In this document: one piece after another, positions 7,460 to 55,704 of the stretch
Numbering within the stretch: position 1 is the first letter of the stretch
Layout of the letters: each line of letters opens with the position of its first letter
Assembly: GCA_041661275.1 (NCBI GenBank)
Contig: JBAZUU010000004.1
Location: 71,480-135,479 of the forward strand
Source: Parcubacteria group bacterium
GTDB taxonomy: Bacteria; Patescibacteriota; Minisyncoccia; Moranbacterales; UBA2206
Length of the DNA stretch: 64,000 bases
Reading direction: 5' to 3'
Made by a program: the position numbers and the translations under genes
Notes under the pieces: model-generated
Seen by the model: only the letters and a program-made list of their open reading frames with translations
Told to the model about the DNA's origin: nothing
Database searches by the model: none

Positions 7460-7491
7460 AATCCCGTCGCTCGCGAGCGACGGGATTTTTT
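7460..7491 (+). terminator. Rho-independent terminator
   Basis: aatcccgtcgctcgcgagcgacgggatttttt: 12-bp GC-rich stem plus T6. Confidence 0.65.
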
Positions 7492-7539: not shown

Positions 7540-8109
7540 ATGAAAATAGTCATTGGGACAGCGGGGGAGATAGCCAGTGGGAAAGAAACTGTGGCACGAT
7601 ATATCATCAAAAAATACGGCGGGTCTTTGTATAGATTTTCCGATTCTCTTCGCGAAATCCTGACCAGGATGCATCTGCCTGCCGACAGATCAAATTATCA
7701 CAAGATTTCCATGGCTTTGCGAGAGTATTTTGGTCAGGATGCACTTTCGCGGATTGTCTATAACGACATTAAAAAAAGCAAAAATAAAATAATTATTCTT
7801 GACGGGATTAGAAGGAAATCAGATACTGAATATTTGAAAGATATTAAAGGGTTTAAACTTATCTTCATTGACGCCAAGATAGAAACAAGACTAGTTAGAT
7901 TAAAAGCAAGAAAAGAAAAGCCCGATGATAAGAATAAGAGCATTGCTAAGTTTAAAAAAGAGCATGAGTCAGAAGTGGAAATAAAAATAAGAAAACTCAA
8001 GAAAATAGCTGATTTTGTGGTTGATAATAATGGTGAAAAAACGAAGCTTTTCCAGCAAATTGATCAAATCATTGATAGGATTTCCAAGAAAAAGAGTAAT
8101 TTGGTATAA
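7540..8109 (+). CDS. P-loop kinase-like protein, paralog 2 (degenerate Walker A GEIASGKET)
   Basis: Same architecture as 6887..7453 (MHLPADRSNY ~ LHLPVTRDNL; DGIRRK; RLVRLKARK; DNNGEKT). Tandem duplicate. Confidence 0.55.
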   Translation: MKIVIGTAGEIASGKETVARYIIKKYGGSLYRFSDSLREILTRMHLPADRSNYHKISMALREYFGQDALSRIVYNDIKKSKNKIIILDGIRRKSDTEYLKDIKGFKLIFIDAKIETRLVRLKARKEKPDDKNKSIAKFKKEHESEVEIKIRKLKKIADFVVDNNGEKTKLFQQIDQIIDRISKKKSNLV

Positions 8110-13917: not shown

Positions 13918-14925
13918 TTATTTTTTCAAAAATTTATTTATTTCCGATTCTGTCTTTTTATACTCGTCAATCCATTTTATACGCGTATCTTTTCTGAACC
14001 ACGTCATCTGCCGTTTGGCATAGTCTTTTTCAGCTCGGAGTATTTTTTGAAATAGTTCCTCCTTGGTTGCGATCTCACCTCTGAGATACTTAGGAATCAA
14101 AAAGTATCCAAGACCAAAGCTTTCTATTTTTTTCCAGGACAGTTTTTCTTTGGAATGTAAATTTTCCACTTCCCTTATCATTCCTTTCGCGAATCTTTTT
14201 CGAAGACGTTTTTCAATGTTTTGGTGGAGTTTTTCTTTGGGGAGATTGATGCCGATCTGGAGAAAGTTATAATTACGTGGTTTTAATTTAGAACCCTCTC
14301 CTGTCGCGAAGACGCGACATCCTCTCCCGAGGGGAGAGGAGGAATTTCTTCTTCCACCCTCTCCCTTCGGGAGAGGGTCATTCGACGAAGTCGAATGGGG
14401 AGAGGGAACCTTACCTAACGTCTTACAAATTTCTATGGCTCTTATTAACCGTACTTTGTTTTTGGCGTCAATACTTTTGGCTCGCTGGGGATCTAGTTTT
14501 TTTAGCATTGTGAATAATTTTTCCGCCGAATAATTACGTAAATAATTACGTAATTTCCAATCAGGTTTTACTTCCGGGTAGATTACATTATCAACAATGG
14601 CTTTTATCCAAAAGCCAGTGCCTCCACAGATAATGGGCAATTTCCCACGTTTCAGGATATCCTTAATAATCTTTTCGGCATCTTTTTTAAATTTAGCGGC
14701 GTTGTAATTTGTTCGCGGACTGACGATATCAATCATATAATGTTTAGCTAGCTTCTGTTCAGCTTTAGTAATCTTACCTGTTCCAATATCCAGTCCGCGA
14801 TAGATTTGTCTTGAGTCAGCGGAAATAATTTCACCGTTGAATTTTTTGGCAAGTCGAATTGCCACATCCGATTTTCCGGAAGATGTGGAGCCGAGGATGA
14901 CGATTATCTTATTATTTCCTTCCAT
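13918..14925 (-). CDS. miaA: tRNA dimethylallyltransferase MiaA carrying in-frame palindromic insertions
   Basis: IIVILGSTSSGKSDVAIRLAKKFNGEIISADSRQIY P-loop. ~38 aa (PSPHSTSSNDPLPKGEGGRRNSSSPLGRGCRVFATGEG) derive from the palindromic repeat at 14294-14406. Confidence 0.85.
   Translation of the reverse strand: MEGNNKIIVILGSTSSGKSDVAIRLAKKFNGEIISADSRQIYRGLDIGTGKITKAEQKLAKHYMIDIVSPRTNYNAAKFKKDAEKIIKDILKRGKLPIICGGTGFWIKAIVDNVIYPEVKPDWKLRNYLRNYSAEKLFTMLKKLDPQRAKSIDAKNKVRLIRAIEICKTLGKVPSPHSTSSNDPLPKGEGGRRNSSSPLGRGCRVFATGEGSKLKPRNYNFLQIGINLPKEKLHQNIEKRLRKRFAKGMIREVENLHSKEKLSWKKIESFGLGYFLIPKYLRGEIATKEELFQKILRAEKDYAKRQMTWFRKDTRIKWIDEYKKTESEINKFLKK
14294..14406. repeat. Family-B palindromic element (two tandem CCCTCTCC...GGGAGAGG hairpins) inside the miaA CDS
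   Basis: ccctctcctgtcgcgaagacgcgacatcctctcccgaggggagagg + ccaccctctcccttcgggagagggtcattcgacgaagtcgaatggggagaggg. Related copies at 24565-24625 and 54688-54739. Confidence 0.6.
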
Positions 14926-16159
14926 ATCTTATTAACTCTCTTAAGACTTTTTCTCTCCTTTTCTTTTCCGGCAAATCGACCGTTTCTTTCATCTTCCACG
15001 CGGCAGTATCGGGGCGGGGAGAATATTTATTGATATATGCTTCATTGTAGCTGACAGTTTTGAAAACTTTTATTGACTCGGAGAAATCCTTTTTGGCTTC
15101 ACCCGGGAAGCCGACGATTATGTCAGTAGTAAATTCGGCTTCTGGAATTATTTTTTTTATCTTTTTAATGAGATTCAGATAATACTTTTGCGTGTATGGT
15201 CGGTTCATGGCCTTGAGAATCTTGTCGCTTCCAGCCTGGACAGGCAAATGGATCTCTCGGGAAATATTTTTGTTTTTGGCAATAACTTTTATCAGTTCGT
15301 TAGAAAAATCTTTGGGGTGAGAGGTTAAAAACTTGAAGCGAATTTGAGGGTTTGATTTGGCAAGGTAATCCAAGAGTTTCGGAAAGTCTACAGTGACAGA
15401 ATTTTTAATTTTTAATTTTAAATTTTTAATCAATTTTAAATTTCCTAATTTTGAATTTTTAAACTCATAGTTATAACTATTAACGTTCTGTCCGAGAAGA
15501 GTTATTTCTTTGCAGTCATTTTTTGTCAGCGATTTTATTTCTTTGATAATATCTTCTACGGGTCTCGAAATCTCTCTACCTCTGGCGTAGGGGACGACGC
15601 AATAGGAGCAGAAGTTGTTACAGCCGGTCATTATCGGCACGTACACTTTATTGTTGTTAATGTATTTTGGAATAATATCCAAATAAGAACCGTCATTCTG
15701 AGCGGAATGACCCCGCCCTTGGCGGGGGAATGTAGCCGAAGAATCTGCCTTTTGGGTTTTCTGGTTATATTTTTTAGTAGATCCTTCGACTACGTTCCGA
15801 TAAGAATCGGAACTTCGCTCAGGATGACGGACTAAGAGAGGTTTTAATTTTTCCGGAAAATTATTTATATTACAGAATAAATCAACCTTATCTTCTAATC
15901 TTCTTTGCACGTCTTTTCTGTCGGCAAGGCAGCCGGTGAGGATGATAGTAATTTTTGGGTTTGATTTTCGTAGATTATGCACAAGTCCATAAACCCTATT
16001 TTCCGCCGACTGACGCACGCCGCAAGTATTGAAAATCACCAAGTTGGCCTGGTTTATATCTTTGGTTGGTTTAATTCTATGCGTTTCTAGAAACCCAGCA
16101 ATTCGCTCGGAATCGCTTTCATTCATTTGACAGCCGAAAGTTTTGATGTAATATTTCAT
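14912..16159 (-). CDS. miaB: tRNA-i6A37 methylthiotransferase MiaB carrying an in-frame MITE insertion
   Basis: MKYYIKTFGCQMNESDSERIAG MTTase N-terminus and radical SAM GCNNFCSYC. A 47-codon insert (15690-15830) is the family-A repeat. Confidence 0.85.
   Translation of the reverse strand: MKYYIKTFGCQMNESDSERIAGFLETHRIKPTKDINQANLVIFNTCGVRQSAENRVYGLVHNLRKSNPKITIILTGCLADRKDVQRRLEDKVDLFCNINNFPEKLKPLLVRHPERSSDSYRNVVEGSTKKYNQKTQKADSSATFPRQGRGHSAQNDGSYLDIIPKYINNNKVYVPIMTGCNNFCSYCVVPYARGREISRPVEDIIKEIKSLTKNDCKEITLLGQNVNSYNYEFKNSKLGNLKLIKNLKLKIKNSVTVDFPKLLDYLAKSNPQIRFKFLTSHPKDFSNELIKVIAKNKNISREIHLPVQAGSDKILKAMNRPYTQKYYLNLIKKIKKIIPEAEFTTDIIVGFPGEAKKDFSESIKVFKTVSYNEAYINKYSPRPDTAAWKMKETVDLPEKKRREKVLRELIRYGRK
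15690..15830. repeat. Family-A MITE-like nested-hairpin repeat, copy 1 (141 bp, inside miaB CDS, in frame)
   Basis: ccgtcattctgagcggaatga...gaagaatctgcc...agatccttcgactacgttcc...cgctcaggatgacgg. Both the outer and the inner inverted repeats are present. Confidence 0.7.
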
Positions 16160-16224
16160 AGAAGTTCTTGTGGGTAAAGTGGTATCCATTAGGATACTAA
16201 AATATTAACGAATTATCAAGGAGG

Positions 16225-21845: not shown

Positions 21846-23672
21846 ATGAAAAATCAAAACAGTGCGCTGCCTTCAAATAGAAGGGGATCGGCAGGATTAA
21901 TAATTGTTCTATTCGCGGCAATAATAGTCCTGGCTATTATTGTTTTTGTAATAATAAGAACACTTTTTCCAGCTTTTGATCTAAAAAATCCCCTGGCGCT
22001 TTTTTCTGGTTCTCAAACAAGTCAAAGCGTTGTGTCCGCTCTAAAAATAAAGACCGATGACAGTGTGGCGGAGATAATAACAGGGGATGGAAAAACGAAT
22101 TTGACTCTCGATCCGATTGCTAAAAAAGACTGGCCAAAAGATGCGGTCGGTGGAATGTTCAAGTTGGAGCCAAGTGGAGATTTTCCAAAGCCAATCACTT
22201 TCAAAATGACTCTAAATAAGGCACCGGAAGGATGTTTTGCTATCGGCTATTGGCATGAGGACACAAAAAAATGGGAATTCTTGCCGACAATTGATCTGGG
22301 AAATAATCAATATGCCACAGTTCTGACGCACGCCAGCACTGTTGGTGGGGGATTGGCCAGCGCCTGTCCTTCGAAGTTTCAGGATGCGGAAAATGTATCT
22401 ATGAGCAATGCTATCCGGGCGGAGCTGATGAAAATTCAAATTGACCAACAAACCGGAGAAGCGGCCAAGATAAATGATGCCAGTTGGAAAAAGGCCTGGG
22501 AGAATGCTGATGAGCTGACTAACAAAGTTATCAGTGATTTTTGCAAAGAGAGAAAAGCGGCCAAGAATTTCTGGGATATAAAAAACACACCAGCCACGAT
22601 GGACTTTTTTAATGGCACACAAATGATGCAGTGTCTCGGTTTTGAAACATTGGCTGAAAAATATTCCAAAGCCGTGGACAACGAGTGCGGAGAAAAGAAA
22701 AAAGATAATGTATATGTCATCAAACAAACTGATAATATAAATGCCAATGTTGATATAAATTTGGCGCAGGGATTCTATAAGCAGCAAATGGATCATAAGA
22801 CTATGGCAGTGACCAACGGAAAAACGACCTCATTTGCCAAGCCAGGCGCTTTCGGCTGGCAGACAAGCTGGCAGGTAGATTCTTTCTACACAGCCACCTT
22901 TACCAATGACTCACGTGTTTTCAAGGAAGAAAGTGTCGGAGCTGACTATTATCTCCTTGATATTCCAATGAAGGGTGTGACGGGAAAATCAAATAGTGTT
23001 AACCGCACCACTTTTTCCTTGGAAGGAGTGAATGAAGGACAGACGTTTTCAGTGAAGGTCGTGCCGATTTCTTATACTTCTAGCGCTTCTGGTCCGTCAC
23101 AGACTGCCAGAGGAAAAATTATCGATGACGGCCAATTAGTGTGGAATTATAACCGCAACTTTTCTCCCGGCTGGAGTGACTCGGGTACTACCGGAAAGCC
23201 GATGGAATTTAAAGCTACTTTACTGAAAAATCTGGGGGAGAAAGGAGCAATAATTAAATTTAGTAGTGACTTGGATGATTTAGGAGGAAAACAAGGAGAG
23301 CAACTGAAACAGATAAATGATATGGTGAAAAGCGCTATGCCAGGCGGACAAAGCTTTCATGGTATGACTTTGCCTCCAGGAGTGAACATTTCAGAATCCG
23401 GTGGCGATAAGCCGTGGAGAATAAAATTGGAATCGGATAGTACGAGCTCAGAAGATGGGACGGGAAATCAGACAGATTCTTCCAAAAACAATAATTCTTC
23501 AGTCAATCCCAATGACAAAGATGGTGATGGCGTTCCGGACCTTGCACCTTTGCCTTCGGCAAATGACAAAAATGGCGACGGTATTCCCGATCTGGTTCCG
23601 TTGCCTTCGCCTAATGATCTTAATGGTGATGGTATTCAAGATCTAGTTCCGCTTCCAGGGTATAAGAAATAA
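21846..23672 (+). CDS. Membrane-anchored surface protein with C-terminal thrombospondin-type-3-like Ca-binding repeats
   Basis: N-terminal TM segment and a large extracellular region. The C-terminus carries three repeats: NPNDKDGDGVPDLAPLPS / ANDKNGDGIPDLVPLPS / PNDLNGDGIQDLVPLPG. Confidence 0.6.
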   Translation: MKNQNSALPSNRRGSAGLIIVLFAAIIVLAIIVFVIIRTLFPAFDLKNPLALFSGSQTSQSVVSALKIKTDDSVAEIITGDGKTNLTLDPIAKKDWPKDAVGGMFKLEPSGDFPKPITFKMTLNKAPEGCFAIGYWHEDTKKWEFLPTIDLGNNQYATVLTHASTVGGGLASACPSKFQDAENVSMSNAIRAELMKIQIDQQTGEAAKINDASWKKAWENADELTNKVISDFCKERKAAKNFWDIKNTPATMDFFNGTQMMQCLGFETLAEKYSKAVDNECGEKKKDNVYVIKQTDNINANVDINLAQGFYKQQMDHKTMAVTNGKTTSFAKPGAFGWQTSWQVDSFYTATFTNDSRVFKEESVGADYYLLDIPMKGVTGKSNSVNRTTFSLEGVNEGQTFSVKVVPISYTSSASGPSQTARGKIIDDGQLVWNYNRNFSPGWSDSGTTGKPMEFKATLLKNLGEKGAIIKFSSDLDDLGGKQGEQLKQINDMVKSAMPGGQSFHGMTLPPGVNISESGGDKPWRIKLESDSTSSEDGTGNQTDSSKNNNSSVNPNDKDGDGVPDLAPLPSANDKNGDGIPDLVPLPSPNDLNGDGIQDLVPLPGYKK

Positions 23673-23769: not shown

Positions 23770-24333
23770 ATGATAACGACTCTGGAAAAAATTAAATTGG
23801 AAGACAAAGAGATAAACTATAATTTGCGACGCAGTAAACGTGCTCGGCGGATGCGGCTGACTATCAATTGCGACGGATCTCTGACGGCGACTCTTCCCCG
23901 AAGATATTCCACTGATGTGTTGGAGAATTTTATCATAGAAAAGGCCGGATGGATCTTGAAAAAGATCGAATACTTTGAGGGCTTGGAAAATAAGGTTCTT
24001 TGGAAAAATGATCCGGTTGATTATGGAAGATACAAAAATGAAGCTTTAGCGCTGGCTCTCAAGCGTGTATATTATTTTAATCAGATTTATGGTTTTAGTT
24101 ATTCCAAAATTTCCATTCGTAATCAAAAGACCAGGTGGGGAAGTTGTTCGAAGAATGGCAACCTAAGCTTTAATTATAAAATTGTTTTTTTGCCAGAATA
24201 TCTGGCTGACTATGTAATTGTCCATGAGCTTTGTCATTTAGGAGAGTTTAATCATTCATCGCGATTTTGGCAATTGGTGGAAAAGACCATAAAAGATTGT
24301 AAAGCTTTGAGGAAGGAAGTGAGGAAGCTATAA
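23770..24333 (+). CDS. YgjP/DUF45-family (M48-like) metal-dependent hydrolase
   Basis: WGSCSKNGNLSFNYKIVFLP...YVIVHELCHLGEFNHSSRFW contains the HExxH motif in the typical DUF45 context. Confidence 0.7.
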   Translation: MITTLEKIKLEDKEINYNLRRSKRARRMRLTINCDGSLTATLPRRYSTDVLENFIIEKAGWILKKIEYFEGLENKVLWKNDPVDYGRYKNEALALALKRVYYFNQIYGFSYSKISIRNQKTRWGSCSKNGNLSFNYKIVFLPEYLADYVIVHELCHLGEFNHSSRFWQLVEKTIKDCKALRKEVRKL

Positions 24334-27300
24334 AATTGTCACTTTTCCTTCCGGTAGAACGGCTTTGATTTTTTCCTGGATATCATCCAGTTTTTTGATG
24401 CAATAGGGAGTTTCCAGTTTGGAATTATTTATTTCCAAAATTACTTTCATCGCCCCACGATCGCAGGAGTCGAAGAATTGAGAAAGTTTCTTGATCGATT
24501 CTTGGCCGCATTCCGCAGGAAGAGTAATAAATAATTTAGGATTATGGATAGTTTGTCCCTCATCCGCCTGCCGTAAATTTTCAGAAAAATTTTGGCAGGC
24601 CCCTTCTCCCGAAGGGAGAAGGGGTTTTGAAGGAGTATTTCTTTTTTGGGTGGCCATAATTCTTTTCATATTTTCCACTTCTTTTTGGTCGACTATTTTG
24701 GCGTTGTCTACCAGGATCTTGAAATTCCCATCCTTGTCGGAAACGCGGCCACTGGCGATGATGATCTTTTCTTCTTCGAAAACTGAACCAAGACGTTCCA
24801 GGACTTTTGGAAAAACAAGAAGTTCAATGCTGGAATCGACACTCTCAATGGTAACGAAACACATCATTTGCTGGCTTTTGGTATATATTTTTTTTATTTT
24901 GGAAATAATTCCGCCGACACTGACATTTTGGCCGACACTAGACTGATTGATATTTCTGATGTTTGTTGCTACCTTGTTAAAATAGTCCTGATAATCTTTG
25001 ACTGGGTGGTCGCTGATGTAGAGTCCCAAAAGTTCTTTTTCCCAGGTCAATTTTTGTTTGGCGGTTGCTTCTGGAGCGCTGGCCAACGTAATTTGCGGCA
25101 GATTTATTTCCTCTTCTCCAAAAAGGCTGGCTTGCGAACTATTTTTGATACGCTCAAGATTTTTGGAATGAGCCAGGATCATTTCTATCGAAGTTATAAT
25201 TTGATTTCTTTCGCCCAGATCATCAAGCGCGCCGACTTTGGCCAGAGCTTCAATGGATTTTTTATTCAGATCTTTGTGATGGACGCGCTCGATAAGGTCA
25301 GTGATACTTTTAAACTTCCCGTTTCTTTTTCTCTCTTCAACAACTTCATGCGCAATTGTATGCCCGACGTTTTTGACAGCATTGAGTCCAAAGCGGATCC
25401 TTTCTTTTTTATCAGTCGGGTCAATAATAACAGCGAATTCTTCAAAACTTTCATTGATGTTCGGTGGTAGGACTTCAATGCCCATTTCCCGGACCTCGGC
25501 AATTTCAATGGCTACGCGATCGATGTCGTCCTGGTCGGAAGTGAGAAGAGCGGCCATAAATTCCGCCGGATAATGAGCTTTGAGATAGGCGGTTTGATAT
25601 CCGATGAGTGCATAACAGGCAGCGTGCGAACGATTAAAACCGTATCCGGCGAACGGTTCGATAAAAGAAAAAACCTCTTCAGCGATGACACTGGAAATTC
25701 CCTGACGTAAACATCCATCGATAAATTTAGCCCGCTCTTCCTGAATGAGAGCGAAAACTTTTTTGCCCATCGCTTTTCGGAGAACATCCGCTTCACCAAG
25801 GGAAAATCCAGCCATCGATTGCGCTATCTGCATCACTTGTTCCTGATAGACAGCTACGCCGTAGGTTTTTCCCAAGATTGGCTCAAGCAATGGATGAAGA
25901 TATCTTATCTGACGCTCGCCATGTTTTCTGGCGATAAAGTCGGGGATCCAATCCATCGGTCCCGGGCGGTAGAGAGCCACCATAGCAATAATGTCTTCAA
26001 AAACGTTTGGTTTTAATAATTTTAAGTATCTTTTCATACCGGAACTTTCCAACTGAAACACGCCGGTTGTTCGGGCATCTTGCAAAAGCTTGAAGGCTTT
26101 AGGATCATCAGCCGGAATATCATCAATATTGATTTCCACGCCTTTGGTTTTTTTCAAAATTCGCAAAGTATTTTGAATGATGGTCAGGTTTTTCAGTCCC
26201 AAAAAATCCATTTTCAGAAGCCCAATCTTTTCTATAAAACTATATTTTGTGGAAGAGGAATATTGCGTGACAGCTCCTGATTCTTTTCCGATAATTTTTT
26301 GTAAGGGGGTATATTCCACCACTGGCTCGCGGGTGATCACCACGCCACACGCATGCATTGACGCATGGCGAGCCACTCCTTCCAGACGCTTGGCTGAATC
26401 GATCAATTTTTTAGCGTCTTCTCCGGAACCATAAAGGTCAGAAAATTCCTTGACGTTTTTGAGGGCATCTTCAATTCCAGAAAACATCGGAATGAGCTTG
26501 GCCGTTTTGTCGCAAAAATCATAAGGGAGGCCAAGCGCCCGGCCAGCGTCACGGATAGCGGCTCGCGCAGCCATTGTTCCAAAAGTGATGATCTGCGCCA
26601 CGTGATCGTTGCCATATTTTTCCCTGACATAATCCAACACTTCATCCCGGCGATCGTCAGCGAAGTCCATATCAACATCCGGCATAGATATTCTTTCCGG
26701 GTTCAAAAATCTTTCAAAAAGAAGGTCATATTTGACCGGGTCGATGTTGGTGATTCCGATGAGATATGAAACGAAACTTCCTGCGGCTGATCCGCGTCCC
26801 GGTCCCACAACTATTCCCTGATCTTTCGCCCAATTGACGAAATCCTGAACGATCAAAAAGTATGACGCAAATCCGGTTTTTTGGATGATGTCCAGTTCAT
26901 ATTCCATTCTTTTTAAATATTCTTCGCCGGGATTTTCGCCAAATTTTTTATGCAAACCTTCTTCTGTCAGTTTTCTGAGATATGATTCGGCATTGTATCC
27001 ATCCGGCACATCGAAGTGGGGGAGCTGGGTTTCTCCGAGTTTGATTTCCAAATTACATGCCTCGACAATTTTTTGGGTGTTTTCTAATGCTTCCGGAACG
27101 TCCTTAAAATGTTCATACATTTCTTCCGGACTCTTGAGCCAAAGTTCAAAAGCCATCAAATTCATCCGGTTGTCTTCCTGCACTTTGCGGTTAGTTTGGA
27201 TGCAAAGCAAAATATCCTGGATAGAATTATCACCGCTATTCACATAATGGATATCATTAGTAGCGACCAAAGGGATATCCAGTTTTTTGGAAATTTTTTT

Positions 27301-27879
27301 GAGCGCGTCATTGGCAATTTTCTGTCGCGGGAAATTAGGATGATGCTGGATCTCCAGATAAAAATTACCGTGGCCAAAAATTTCGTCGTATTCTTTCGCC
27401 AGCCTTTCCGCTTTTTCCATATCGCCGGAAATGGCCGCGGCCGGCACTTCGCCTTCCGCGCAAGCGCTAAGACCGATGAGACCTTCGGAATGTTTTCTTA
27501 GTAATTCCTTATTGATGCGAGGTTTGTAATAGAATCCTTCCAGATGGGCGATAGAAATCAGTTTCATGAGGTTCTTGTAGCCCTTTTCATTTTTGCAAAG
27601 CAAGATCAGGTGATAGCGAGTTTTGTCTTCCGCAGTATTATTGTGGCTTTTATAGTCTCCGGCAGTGAGATAAAATTCGCAACCGATAATCGGTTTTATC
27701 CCTTTTTCTTTGGCTTTGATAAAAAACTCGATAGCGCCATAAAGAACGCCGTGATCGGTGATAGCGAGCGAATCCATTCCCAGTTCTTTGGCGCGATTAA
27801 GTAGGTCGTCGATTTTGGCAAGACCATCGAGGAGGGAGTAGTGGGAGTGGACGTGGAGATGGGTGAATTTGGGAGGCAT
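24328..27879 (-). CDS. dnaE: DNA polymerase III alpha subunit DnaE
   Basis: N-terminal PHP domain (HLHVHSHYSLLDG), polymerase core, OB fold. 1183 aa. Confidence 0.9.
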   Translation of the reverse strand: MPPKFTHLHVHSHYSLLDGLAKIDDLLNRAKELGMDSLAITDHGVLYGAIEFFIKAKEKGIKPIIGCEFYLTAGDYKSHNNTAEDKTRYHLILLCKNEKGYKNLMKLISIAHLEGFYYKPRINKELLRKHSEGLIGLSACAEGEVPAAAISGDMEKAERLAKEYDEIFGHGNFYLEIQHHPNFPRQKIANDALKKISKKLDIPLVATNDIHYVNSGDNSIQDILLCIQTNRKVQEDNRMNLMAFELWLKSPEEMYEHFKDVPEALENTQKIVEACNLEIKLGETQLPHFDVPDGYNAESYLRKLTEEGLHKKFGENPGEEYLKRMEYELDIIQKTGFASYFLIVQDFVNWAKDQGIVVGPGRGSAAGSFVSYLIGITNIDPVKYDLLFERFLNPERISMPDVDMDFADDRRDEVLDYVREKYGNDHVAQIITFGTMAARAAIRDAGRALGLPYDFCDKTAKLIPMFSGIEDALKNVKEFSDLYGSGEDAKKLIDSAKRLEGVARHASMHACGVVITREPVVEYTPLQKIIGKESGAVTQYSSSTKYSFIEKIGLLKMDFLGLKNLTIIQNTLRILKKTKGVEINIDDIPADDPKAFKLLQDARTTGVFQLESSGMKRYLKLLKPNVFEDIIAMVALYRPGPMDWIPDFIARKHGERQIRYLHPLLEPILGKTYGVAVYQEQVMQIAQSMAGFSLGEADVLRKAMGKKVFALIQEERAKFIDGCLRQGISSVIAEEVFSFIEPFAGYGFNRSHAACYALIGYQTAYLKAHYPAEFMAALLTSDQDDIDRVAIEIAEVREMGIEVLPPNINESFEEFAVIIDPTDKKERIRFGLNAVKNVGHTIAHEVVEERKRNGKFKSITDLIERVHHKDLNKKSIEALAKVGALDDLGERNQIITSIEMILAHSKNLERIKNSSQASLFGEEEINLPQITLASAPEATAKQKLTWEKELLGLYISDHPVKDYQDYFNKVATNIRNINQSSVGQNVSVGGIISKIKKIYTKSQQMMCFVTIESVDSSIELLVFPKVLERLGSVFEEEKIIIASGRVSDKDGNFKILVDNAKIVDQKEVENMKRIMATQKRNTPSKPLLPSGEGACQNFSENLRQADEGQTIHNPKLFITLPAECGQESIKKLSQFFDSCDRGAMKVILEINNSKLETPYCIKKLDDIQEKIKAVLPEGKVTIL
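24565..24625. repeat. Family-B-like palindromic element inside the dnaE CDS (near the C-terminus)
   Basis: ccgcctgccgtaaattttcagaaaaattttggcaggc + cccttctcccgaagggagaagggg, translated in frame as ...KPLLPSGEGACQNFSENLRQADEG... Confidence 0.4.
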
Positions 27880-28452: not shown

Positions 28453-29157
28453 ATGAAAAAACAGTCAATATCAAAAATACTAAAAACTGAACAAAAATAT
28501 CTGGACAATGGATACGATTTTGTTATTGGCATAGATGAGGCAGGACGGGGGCCGTTGGCGGGGCCAGTAGTGGCTTGCGCGGTTTGTTATAGGAATGGAG
28601 GCTCGGCCTCCATTATGGAGGCCGAGCCTCCAAAGCGATTTGAGTCAATAAAGGATAGTAAAAAGCTTTCTGAAAAGCAGCGGGAAGAATTATATGATTT
28701 TATACACGAGCATTTCCATGTCGGTATTGGAATCTGTGACCACAAAACAATCGATAGGATAAATATTTTGGAAGCGACGTATCTTTCTATGAAAAAAGCG
28801 CTTACCTTCCTAACATCCGATGTTAGGATGAATAAGATGATAGTGTTGGTCGATGGCAATAAAGTTATTCCCAATTGCAGTTATGAACAAAAAGCGATTG
28901 TTAACGGCGACAATATTGTGAAATCAATTTCGGCGGCTTCGATCATTGCCAAAGTGACGCGGGATCGGATGATGAAAAAAATGCACGATAAATATCCGAA
29001 GTATAATTTTGCTTCTCATAAGGGATATGGGACGAAATTGCATATGGAAATGATAAAAAAGCATGGAGCTTGTGAGATACATAGGAAGAGCTTTAGACCC
29101 TGCAATCTTAAGAGAGTCTCTTCTGCCCGTCATTCTGAGCGGAATCGAGTCCGTTAG
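28453..29157 (+). CDS. rnhB: Ribonuclease HII (C-terminus extended by read-through into a MITE copy; internal in-frame palindrome)
   Basis: FVIGIDEAGRGPLAGPVVACAV catalytic motif. An internal NGGSASIMEAEPPK segment is encoded by the perfect palindrome at 28597-28635. The last ~12 aa (ARHSERNRVR) come from the repeat at 29127. Confidence 0.85.
   Translation: MKKQSISKILKTEQKYLDNGYDFVIGIDEAGRGPLAGPVVACAVCYRNGGSASIMEAEPPKRFESIKDSKKLSEKQREELYDFIHEHFHVGIGICDHKTIDRINILEATYLSMKKALTFLTSDVRMNKMIVLVDGNKVIPNCSYEQKAIVNGDNIVKSISAASIIAKVTRDRMMKKMHDKYPKYNFASHKGYGTKLHMEMIKKHGACEIHRKSFRPCNLKRVSSARHSERNRVR
28597..28635. repeat. Perfect 15-bp-stem palindrome inside the rnhB CDS
   Basis: ggaggctcggcctcc attat ggaggccgagcctcc. 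Confidence 0.6.
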
Positions 29158-40871: not shown

Positions 40872-41397
40872 GAGTCAGAAACTTTAAAAAACAACCCAGT
40901 ATTTTGAGGGGTTGTTTTTTTATGTCATAATATTTGGCTTTGTCAAGCCAAAATGTGGATAACTTTCCTTGCATTTTTTTTGCCGGCTGATAGAATAAAA
41001 AAGCAGATGAGGGAAAATAAAATATTTTTCAAAAAGGAAAAAAGATAAAAGGAGGGAAAAGGGGTTAAATCGTAAAATACAGTTGAATAATAGATATGGA
41101 TATATTCTTGATGAAAAGGATATTTTTATTTAAGAAGGCCAGCCGGCGTTCATTATTTGTTTAGTGAATAGCGGTTGGCTTTTTTTGTTGTTCTCTACGA
41201 ATTACGAATTTTAAAGAGCAAAATTTAATTCCTCCGATCGGAGGAGCCCAAAGAGGAGGAGGGTTTAAATTTTTTTAAAGCCAACCCCGGTTGAATAGTC
41301 CGCTTCGCGGAATTCAACGGGGCAAGTAATGGTCGAGGGTGTCAGGCCGCCCAGAGCGTCTGGAAATTAATTAGTAATTAACTAGAATAAATAAACT

Positions 41398-54292: not shown

Positions 54293-54382
54293 TTTTTTGA
54301 AAAATTGAATATCTTTTATAGAGACGCCCTGCCATGGCGTCTCTACTTTTCGGCTCTTTAATATTTAGTGTGTGCTTTTTAA

Positions 54383-54525
54383 CCGTCATTCTGAGCGGAA
54401 TCGAGTCCGTTTAGGACGAGATGAAGTCGAAGAATCTACTTTATGGCTAAACCAGGCAATATTATTGAGTAGATCCTTCGACTGCGTTCTTCCGCTAACG
54501 CGGAATCACTTCGCTCAGGATGACG
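54383..54525. repeat. Family-A MITE-like repeat, copy 5
   Basis: ccgtcattctgagcggaatcgagtccgtttaggacgagatgaagtcgaagaatct...agatccttcgactgcgttcttccgctaacgcggaatcacttcgctcaggatgacg. Confidence 0.7.
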
Positions 54526-54687
54526 AGCTTATATGGTCCAGTGTAAAACCTCGTTAAATGGCTTAACAAAAATAATTTTTAAACTTATCCACCACACTAA
54601 TTATTATAGAGCCTACTTTTCTTGCCAATTGAGCCAAAATATAGTAGGCTGAAGTGTGGTATTATTAATATAACCAACAATAATGTG

Positions 54688-54739
54688 CCCTCTCTGTCAC
54701 GATAGGAATCGTGACATCTCTCCCGGAGGGAGAGAGGGA
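54688..54739. repeat. Family-B palindromic element upstream of the NIF3 gene
   Basis: ccctctctgtcacgataggaatcgtgacatctctcccggagggagagaggg. Same architecture as the first hairpin at 14294. Confidence 0.5.
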
Positions 54740-54741
54740 TA

Positions 54742-55704
54742 ATGAAAAACTCTATGACTATTCAAGAAATTTATAAACTGGCCTTAGAAATGGGCATGAA
54801 GAGCGATTTTCGGTCAAAAAAGGAAATTGCCGAATATTTGAAATTGAAAAAGGAAGAATATGACGCTTTGCCGAAAGACGAAAAACAATATTTCGACAAA
54901 GAAAAATTGACTAATCCATATTCTGATACGCGAATTCATTTTGATTCTGGCAAAAAAAATATTAAAAGAATTTTTGCGTCGATTGATGTGACGCCTGGAT
55001 CGATCTATATTGCCGAAGAACTACATGCAGATCTCATCATCAATCATCATCCGGTTGGACTGGCCTTGGCTGGACTTGATGATGTTATGAACTATCAAGT
55101 GGATCAGATGGAAAAAGTTGGTGTGCCAATTGCTATTGCCGAAAAACTAATTCACAAGAGAATTTCCGAGGTGGCACGCGGAATAAACCCCATTAATCAT
55201 TATGAACCGGTAGATGCAGCCAGAGTTATGAAGATTAGTCTTATCAATATTCATACACCAGGAGATAATTTTGCTGCGCAATTTGTTTTAGAAAAAATCA
55301 AAAAAGCCCAACCAAGATATGTGAAAGATATTTTGAAAGCGCTTATGGAAATTCCGGAATATCAAGAAGCAACAAAACAAGGAAGTGGGCCAATGCTTTT
55401 TTCGGGCGCTAAAAATAATCGCTGTGGACGAGTTGTAGTATCAGAATTTGCCGGAGGAACAGACGGGTCAAAAGAAATCTATCAAGCAATGGCCAATGCT
55501 GGTGTGGGAACAATCATTTCCATGCATCAGAGCGAAGATCACCGGAAAGCGGCTGAAGAGGCGCATATCAATGTCGTTGTGTCTGGGCATATTTCATCTG
55601 ATTCTTTGGGCATGAATTTGTTTTTGGATAAATTAGAAAAAAAGGGAATGGAAATCGTGCCGTTTGGAGGACTCATTAGAGTTAGCAGAAATAAGAAAAA
55701 ATAA
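54742..55704 (+). CDS. NIF3-family (YqfO-like) dinuclear-metal-centre protein
   Basis: ADLIINHHP and the C-terminal VVVSGHISSDSLGMN match the NIF3 signatures. Confidence 0.8.
   Translation: MKNSMTIQEIYKLALEMGMKSDFRSKKEIAEYLKLKKEEYDALPKDEKQYFDKEKLTNPYSDTRIHFDSGKKNIKRIFASIDVTPGSIYIAEELHADLIINHHPVGLALAGLDDVMNYQVDQMEKVGVPIAIAEKLIHKRISEVARGINPINHYEPVDAARVMKISLINIHTPGDNFAAQFVLEKIKKAQPRYVKDILKALMEIPEYQEATKQGSGPMLFSGAKNNRCGRVVVSEFAGGTDGSKEIYQAMANAGVGTIISMHQSEDHRKAAEEAHINVVVSGHISSDSLGMNLFLDKLEKKGMEIVPFGGLIRVSRNKKK

Follow-up and report, generated by a model that had tools for sequence, protein, structure and literature searches.

Three-arm repeats at the miaA and dnaE loci

The DNA studied here is a 64-kb stretch (64,000 nucleotides, hereafter the window) of a Parcubacteria/Moranbacteria genome of the candidate phyla radiation (CPR), with a low GC content (about 40%). 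The subject of this work is a short repeat that is present four times in the window: as an inverted pair (E1 and E2) inside the miaA gene, as one copy inside dnaE and as one intergenic copy (E3) upstream of a NIF3-family gene, three of the four copies lying within open reading frames (ORFs). The initial annotation had described these sites as palindromic hairpins of a mobile repeat family. The sequences and positions of the miaA, dnaE and NIF3-upstream copies were as it described them, but the palindromic hairpin is not the repeated unit, which has three arms (Y, R, hairpin and mirror R) and is of the BoxC/PIT/TM kind. Read along a single strand, one copy consists of a Y arm (CCTCTCCC-like), a 3-nt loop, an R arm (GGGAGAGG-like) that is the Watson-Crick partner of Y, a variable stem-loop linker and a further purine arm, R*, whose sequence mirrors that of R; the whole copy is about 45-70 bp long. 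The features of the locus are the following:

13918-14925, minus strand: miaA (tRNA dimethylallyltransferase, 335 aa; Pfam IPPT, E = 3e-67)
14294-14340, minus strand (miaA sense): E1, three-arm copy inside the miaA ORF; linker of 17 nt, R* AGGAGAGGG, mirror match 9/9
14340-14332, minus strand: E1 Y arm TCCTCTCCC, followed by the loop CTC
14328-14320, minus strand: E1 R arm GGGAGAGGA
14319-14302, minus strand: E1 linker hairpin TGTCGCG-tctt-CGCGACA
14301-14294, minus strand: E1 mirror arm GGAGAGGG
14341-14356: 16-nt spacer GGAATTTCTTCTTCCA between E1 and E2
14357-14406, plus strand (antisense to miaA): E2, three-arm copy inside the miaA ORF
14357-14365, plus strand: E2 Y arm CCCTCTCCC, followed by the loop TTC
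14369-14377, plus strand: E2 R arm GGGAGAGGG
14378-14397, plus strand: E2 linker hairpin T-CATTCGAC-gaa-GTCGAATG, 20 nt
14398-14406, plus strand: E2 mirror arm GGGAGAGGG, mirror match 9/9
24328-27879, minus strand: dnaE ORF, carrying the copy at 24557-24624
24557-24624, minus strand (sense strand): dnaE copy, a full member with its hairpin part at 24600-24624; Y arm CCCCTTCTCCC, loop TTC, R arm GGGAGAAGGGG, R* GCGGATGAGGG
54688-54738, minus strand: E3, intergenic, upstream of the NIF3-family gene; Y arm TCTCTCCC, R arm GGGAGAGA, linker of 21 nt, R* AGAGAGGG, mirror match 8/8

Each copy possesses a pyrimidine arm that is rich in C and about 9 nt long (CCCTCNCCC) (CCCTCTCCC in E2, TCCTCTCCC in E1, TCTCTCCC in E3 and CCCCTTCTCCC in dnaE). 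In all four, the first loop is 3 nt long and the stem that it caps is perfect over 8-11 bp, and the linkers (17, 20, 21 and 32 nt) each make their own hairpin. The plus strand of the miaA block (14294-14406) reads CCCTCTCC TGTCGCGaagaCGCGACA TCCTCTCCCgagGGGAGAGGA, the 16-nt spacer, and then CCCTCTCCCttcGGGAGAGGG TCATTCGACgaaGTCGAATG GGGAGAGGG. E1 and E2 are mutually inverted and fold jointly as one four-way palindrome, the tip of which is formed by the spacer with its small GGAA/TTCC hairpin; the folding energy of the block is -82.6 kcal/mol as RNA (z = -8.6) and -47.6 kcal/mol as DNA (z = -9.7). The hairpin that the initial annotation had placed in dnaE is present there, but it is only one part of a complete three-arm copy, with a 32-nt linker hairpin (CCTGCC...GGCAG) and a third arm that obeys the mirror rule at 10/11 positions, the exception being one T opposite A. 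The NIF3-upstream copy, for which the same architecture as in miaA had been proposed, also follows the three-arm plan, its plus strand reading CCCTCTCT / TGTCACGAT-agga-ATCGTGACA / TCTCTCCC-gga-GGGAGAGAGGG. Its purine arm GGGAGAGAGGG (54728-54741 region) stops 3 nt short of the NIF3 ATG at 54742 and holds GGAG/GAGG, and it may double as a ribosome-binding site, which the Y arm would then cover in the mRNA.

Detection in the window

A three-arm finder gave 8 overlapping detections in the window, all accounted for by the 4 elements, whereas shuffled windows gave 0.01 each on average. The simple motif search proposed in the initial annotation was carried out as CCCTCTC-N(10-40)-GAGAGGG and gave 2 matches in the window (0.00 expected), and the core CTCTCCCNNNGGGAGAG was found 6 times with up to 2 mismatches (0.05 expected). 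A covariance model made from related copies and then run on the window recovered E1 (71.5 bits, E 1.5e-19), E3 (40 bits, E 3.2e-10), E2 (36.5 bits, E 3.6e-9) and the dnaE hairpin (E 5e-4). These matches are far above chance, and many more copies exist elsewhere. The reading of the segments as copies of a repeat family rather than a lineage-specific stretch of low complexity is supported. Two weak matches of the covariance model were discarded, one at 23547-23581, which is a protein repeat, and one at 41231-41263, which is a 6-nt mini-motif of triplex-like form (TCCTCCgatcGGAGGAgcccaaAGAGGAGGAGGG). Over the elements, no Rfam family attained its gathering score in the whole window or in 14 related loci, nor did an E-value scan of 14200-14500 place a family over them; the matches below threshold were chance microRNA models.

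Mirror arms and linker helices

The relation between R and R* was analysed in 146 asymmetric Y/R hairpins taken from fetched loci, whose arms had not been set by the scan patterns. A perfect mirror third arm was found 3' of R in 46 of them, representing 19 distinct R sequences (for example GGGGGAGG/GGAGGGGG, GAGGGAGG/GGAGGGAG and GGGAGAAGG/GGATGAGGG), whereas a perfect direct-repeat third arm was found in 1/146 and a mirror arm upstream in 0/146. When the register was anchored using G positions only, the third-arm base opposite A of R was A in 594 cases, T in 140, G in 15 and C in 12, that is, A or T in 96%. This fits purine-motif triads, which allow A or T at this position, and since a T opposite A cannot pair with Y it also argues against a simple switch between two hairpins. 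To our knowledge, the repeats to which DNA copying processes give rise are direct or inverted and never mirror repeats. The covariation of the mirror arms thus points to a probable constraint on the fold or on its recognition.

The linker was examined in the same way. In the genome-scan set, which was unselected for a hairpin at this place, 46% of the linkers contained a perfect stem of at least 5 bp, as opposed to 2.3% of shuffles. When 16 copies of the E1 type were aligned without gaps (alignment A2), the linker helix was paired in 98% of cells, with about 50% in slid controls, and it showed 18 double-sided changes, a number that 0/500 shuffles matched; two helix positions were occupied by four and three pair types, respectively. 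The orthologous E1 linkers of the window and of the related locus L001 differ by such double changes (TGTCGCGtcttCGCGACA vs TGTCATGtactCATGACA). In the copy of locus L002 the linker stem is kept only via G-U-type pairs on the sense strand.

Residence in MiaA, DnaE and other proteins

The miaA ORF stays open across the insert, reading ...KVPSPHSTSSNDPLPKGEGGRRNSSSPLGRGCRVFATGEGSK..., so the segments are translated in frame as initially annotated. E2, spacer and E1 (14293-14406, 114 nt = 38 codons) code for MiaA residues 174-211, PSPHSTSSNDPLPKGEGGRRNSSSPLGRGCRVFATGEG, to which E1 contributes SSPLGRGCRVFATGEG and E2, read from its opposite strand, PSPHSTSSNDPLPKGEG. The dnaE copy yields the peptide ...KPLLPSGEGACQNFSENLRQADEG....

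Comparison with orthologs confirmed that these peptides are insertions. In an alignment of 36 MiaA orthologs (alignment A1) the protein is hypervariable directly after the conserved AIEICKxLGKVP; the site is nearly empty in several orthologs, is filled by peptides of the same repeat in P0007 (SPQPSPKGRGSSSSSPLGRGCHVLMTGEGS), P0009, P0019, P0073, P0075, P0118 and P0119, and in others carries peptides typical of different palindromic families. A second hypervariable MiaA site (A1 columns 101-142, after GTGKI) contains repeat-like peptides in many relatives and is empty in the window protein. The alignment with solved MiaA structures of the PDB covers residues 7-169 and 217-323 of the query and leaves out 170-216, and a PDB homolog lacks about 32 residues at the insert site. 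The AlphaFold model of the window MiaA (mean predicted local distance difference test, pLDDT, 81.7) falls below a pLDDT of 50 at 47-49 and 178-216 only, where no secondary structure is found, and is confident elsewhere; residues 174-211 are hence predicted to be disordered. The dnaE copy occupies a variable site after KRIMATQK, C-terminal of the OB-fold match, as seen from the aligned DnaE C-termini: this site is empty in L002, and L241 and L181/L205 have other copies of the triplex type there.

Such residence is not restricted to the window. In CPR-like and low-GC loci about a third of the elements are inside long ORFs, and the ORFs that bear copies are real genes, encoding PriA, FemAB, alpha-2-macroglobulin, UppP/BacA, MiaB, ArgRS, DnaX, an LTD protein, a reverse transcriptase and also DnaE, the latter at the same site as in the window. 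All three frames are used by the in-gene copies (SSPLGRGC..TGEG, SLPLGEMS..DRVG, PLLPSGEGA..), and independent sites divide into about 9 sense and 6 antisense. The arms, as read off their sequences, have no stop codon in any frame, which helps to explain why copies are tolerated in genes. The use of three frames and both strands, together with the intergenic copies, excludes a selected peptide-coding module, and the use of both orientations argues as well against a strand-specific role at the RNA level.

Occurrence in other genomes

Species-representative genomes were scanned with the pattern CCCTCTC-N(1-30)-CTCTCCC-NNN-GGGAGAG, which gave at least 120 loci in Proteobacteria, Clostridia (Oscillospiraceae, Faecalibacterium), Planctomycetota, Bacteroidota, Cyanobacteria, Chloroflexota, Acidobacteriota, Verrucomicrobiota, Myxococcota and CPR groups. 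For the hairpin-linker form with TGTC...GACAG, a scan of metagenomes gave at least 116 stretches with at least 135 matches, on contigs of low, middle and high GC. Two forms were recognized among the listed loci, one with a second loop of 3 nt, often arranged as inverted pairs ending in GGGTGAGGG, and one with a hairpin linker as in the window. Near-identical relatives of E1 are present in Moraniibacteriota and Patescibacteria contigs (L084, L105 and L110). Neither repeats of this kind inside CPR genes nor the hairpin-linker variant were found described in the literature searched.

The general three-arm pattern was also present in at least 120 IMG/VR viral or prophage contigs (L242-L321 and further loci), a possible route between lineages; the CPR-type TGTC pattern had no match in the IMG/VR viral contigs. 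One contig binned as the metagenome-assembled genome of a Halobacteria archaeon (L113) carries a BoxC-type copy, CCCTCTCCCTGGCCCTCTCCCGGAGGGAGAGGG, which is either genuine or a binning error.

Maintenance of E1

Outside the insert, the miaA genes of the window and of L001 share 73% amino-acid identity and 46% third-codon identity. The E1 arms together with the TGTC/GACA stem base are identical between the two at 36/36 positions, synonymous positions included. This constancy could be due either to purifying selection in place or to homogenisation by exchange with other copies. Orthologs with about 73-76% amino-acid identity carry E1 at an identical position, an observation that agrees equally well with recent hopping and with old copies kept at a hypervariable site that the orthologs share.

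Comparison with known repeats

The closest known system, found in E. coli and other Proteobacteria, is the BoxC / PIT (potential intrastrand triplex) / TM_ECO pattern, CCCTCNCCC-N3-6-GGGNGAGGG-N3-GGGNGAGGG (Holder et al. 2015, PMC4666352, where earlier studies of the Maher laboratory are cited). TM_ECO is a class II purine-motif intrastrand triplex with 23 copies in E. coli K-12, all of them intergenic, without orientation bias and frequently in inverted pairs, and 3610 copies of this type were counted in 262 proteobacterial genomes (PMC4666352). In vitro, circular dichroism and nuclear magnetic resonance showed a stable triplex of its single strand; neither promoter nor terminator activity was found, nor a transposase or integrase nearby, no link to phages or plasmids was reported for E. 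coli, and the motif has been linked to local genomic variability (PMC4666352). The window copies share with it the arm sequences (CCCTCTCCC / GGGAGAGGG), the order of Y, 3-nt loop, R and mirror purine arm, the acceptance of A or T opposite A, the multi-copy occurrence without orientation bias, the locally variable sequence and the inverted pairs, the miaA pair E2 + E1 resembling the E. coli pairs of type A + B. They differ in that the second loop is a stem-loop of 17-32 nt (in CPR usually TGTC...GACA) instead of 3 nt, and we have therefore filed the repeat as a variant and not as a plain member. They differ also in their placement, since TM_ECO is always intergenic in E. coli while the window copies are translated within essential genes, and in their host, a low-GC CPR/Moranbacteria genome outside the published proteobacterial set. 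The loops allowed were 1-6 nt in the ITxF finder and 0-10 nt in the earlier search of Hoyne et al. (PMC4666352), and a hairpin linker of 17-32 nt would be missed by such short-loop searches.

Rickettsia palindromic elements (RPE) provide a parallel for the genomic setting, being palindromic sequences in frame at permissive sites of unrelated housekeeping genes of a reduced genome. RPE measure about 100-150 bp and have a reported conserved peptide, unlike the present repeat, with its 45-70 bp, three arms and use of all frames and both orientations; the likeness is one of setting, and no relationship in sequence is expected. With repetitive extragenic palindromic (REP) sequences, bacterial interspersed mosaic elements (BIME) and miniature inverted-repeat transposable elements (MITE) the repeat has in common that it is short, GC-rich, structure-forming, multi-copy and non-coding, and that some sites are nests of alternating families. 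Unlike REP/BIME, it has no firm GTAG/CTAC signature (a 3' ...CTA(C) flank, candidate for a REP-like GTAG, is weak and variable), and no REP-associated tyrosine transposase (RAYT) or other transposase was seen in the window; nothing in REPs or MITEs corresponds to the mirror third arm that defines the repeat.

Interpretation and alternatives

We interpret the window repeats, with a probability of roughly 0.7, as a structure-defined DNA repeat of the BoxC/PIT type, in a hairpin-linker variant, that resides in permissive hypervariable sites and is passively translated. The architecture, the recurrence across phyla, the covariation of the arms according to the triplex rule and the compensatory change of the linker all support this assignment, as do the presence or absence of copies among orthologs and their in-frame placement at predicted disordered or variable linker sites. 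Mechanistically, DNA that is transiently single-stranded during replication, transcription or repair would fold back twice, with R* sitting in the groove of the Y-R hairpin, and the arms would be kept constant by this double fold-back or by a protein reading it. Copies would arise or be exchanged at the DNA level, and survival within the genes of a gene-dense CPR genome would need a length that is a multiple of three, no stop codon and a site in an interdomain linker or a permissive surface loop. The surviving in-gene copies would then be read as Pro/Ser/Gly/Glu-rich disordered peptides without a function of their own.

Several points weigh against this interpretation. The genome was sampled through the 64-kb window only, and the two public scans, whose patterns fixed part of the arms, give lower bounds and frequencies that are not a census. 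The R* arms of E1, E2 and E3 are also complementary to Y, their arms being near mirror-symmetric, and template-switch (quasipalindrome) mutation can make compensatory linker changes without selection. In E. coli no triplex was detected at TM_ECO in vivo by dimethyl sulphate footprinting (PMC4666352). No route of spread came to light, and conservation of the flanks is weak (YCCTC 5' of the Y arm). As regards the mobility assumed in the initial annotation, neither a target-site duplication nor an exact boundary was found at the miaA and dnaE sites on comparison with L001, L002, L240 and L241, which are distant relatives, about 75% identical, each bearing another element there. Apart from the arms, no terminal repeats were seen, and no transposase was seen in the sequence at hand, the 64-kb window, no search of the whole genome having been made.

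The last of these observations also bear on an ordinary non-autonomous transposon, MITE or REP-like, mobilized by a transposase elsewhere and using the three-arm shape as a recognition site only. We regard this as unlikely. It would account for the many copies, for their presence or absence among orthologs, for the occupation of the same sites by different repeat families in different lineages, for the general pattern in the IMG/VR contigs and for the weak extended conservation at the element ends. It does not sit well with the lack of a target-site duplication or clear boundary at the compared sites, nor with the finding of no transposase or integrase near TM_ECO. The linkers differ among all four window copies, which speaks against a recent burst; the orthologous E1 has persisted across the amino-acid divergence given above, and the CPR-type pattern is not found in viral contigs.

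It is also improbable, in our opinion, that the repeat acts as a structured mRNA element, by slowing the ribosome between domains, by stabilizing the transcript or, in the case of E3, by masking the NIF3 ribosome-binding site. The best case for such a role is the E3 purine arm, with its GGAG/GAGG 3 nt before the NIF3 ATG; the very stable RNA fold of the miaA block, the L002 linker stem held by sense-strand G-U-type pairs only and the frequent location of in-gene sites in interdomain linkers are in agreement with it. In genes, however, the copies have both orientations (about 9:6), and E1 and E2 are opposed within a single gene. RNA does not form purine-motif triplexes (PMC4666352), a plain RNA hairpin would leave a T opposite A in the third arm without a role, no Rfam family was matched, and neither promoter nor terminator activity was found for TM_ECO.

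A G-quadruplex built from the four G-runs of R and R*, or a two-state hairpin switch with R and R* as alternative partners of Y, was judged very improbable: the BoxC-type R-N3-R* (GGGAGAGGG-TTA-GGGTGAGGG) does have the canonical G3N3 x4 pattern and R* is complementary to Y in E1, E2 and E3, but E1 and several subfamilies contain only GG runs, the central 'loop' would be 17-32 nt, the position-exact mirroring of R* interruptions (GGGAGAAGG / GGATGAGGG) is not required by a quadruplex, a T opposite A, seen in 18%, is incompatible with Watson-Crick pairing to Y, and R* cannot pair with Y in asymmetric arms such as CCTCCCCC / GGGGGAGG / GGAGGGGG.

Returning to the BoxC/PIT-type DNA repeat, its novelty with respect to the known members lies in the linker hairpin, in a host that belongs to the CPR and in the placement of copies in frame within essential genes. 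The family is thereby extended into CPR bacteria, Clostridia, Planctomycetota and others, in a hairpin-linker form that is outside the reach of published triplex finders. For annotation, many unusual Pro/Ser/Gly-rich segments classed as 'low-complexity', and many spurious small ORFs, in metagenome-assembled genomes would find an explanation and can be masked once recognized as translated repeats of the triplex motif. From the point of view of genome evolution, repeat DNA is taken into protein loops where a genome is reduced and short of intergenic space, in parallel to Rickettsia. The importance of intrastrand triplexes in cells has been a question since the 1990s, and natural covariation data of this kind make their cellular role testable; the interest of the repeat would grow if the covariation reflects triplex formation in cells. 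A more far-reaching proposal, which we put forward only tentatively and hold to be doubtful, is that hairpin-linked triplex-motif elements are a pan-bacterial class of DNA structure, overlooked by short-loop searches, with a role at the DNA level. If so, the covariation of their arms by Hoogsteen-type rules would represent the first comparative, in-vivo-type evidence of selection on intrastrand triplexes or on a protein reading them, and the nucleotide-level upkeep in essential CPR genes across deep orthologs would imply a DNA-level role rather than junk, for example in signalling replication or repair or as a target recognized by a universal host factor.

Other repeats in the window and at related loci

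The gene next to miaA, miaB, carries another in-frame repeat family (family A), as had been annotated initially. This is a different palindromic repeat, located at 15693-15828, with the termini GTCATTCTGAGCG...CGCTCAGGATGAC and inner GC hairpins, and it gives rise to an in-frame insert of roughly 45 aa in the MiaB interdomain linker. A second family A copy is intergenic, in the glyS-NIF3 spacer (54372-54557). The window MiaB-like protein (14912-16189) ends just after the radical-SAM region and is without the C-terminal extension of L002, in which a weak TRAM domain was recorded. Further GC-rich palindromes were observed in the window at 7460-7487 and 28594-28632 (AATCCCGTCGCTcgcgAGCGACGGGATT; 17-bp perfect stem TGGAGGCTCGGCCTCCA).

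In L240, the closest relative, an element related to family A (TGTCATTGCGAGCG...CTCGCAATGACA) is present at the same miaB site and also at the miaA site. The miaB gene of L240 consists of two ORFs, separated at 7700-7760 by a frameshift in the homopolymer run GGCAAAAATAATCC. The repeat was rejected as the cause of this split on account of the homopolymer frameshift, which is either a sequencing error or the mark of a pseudogene.

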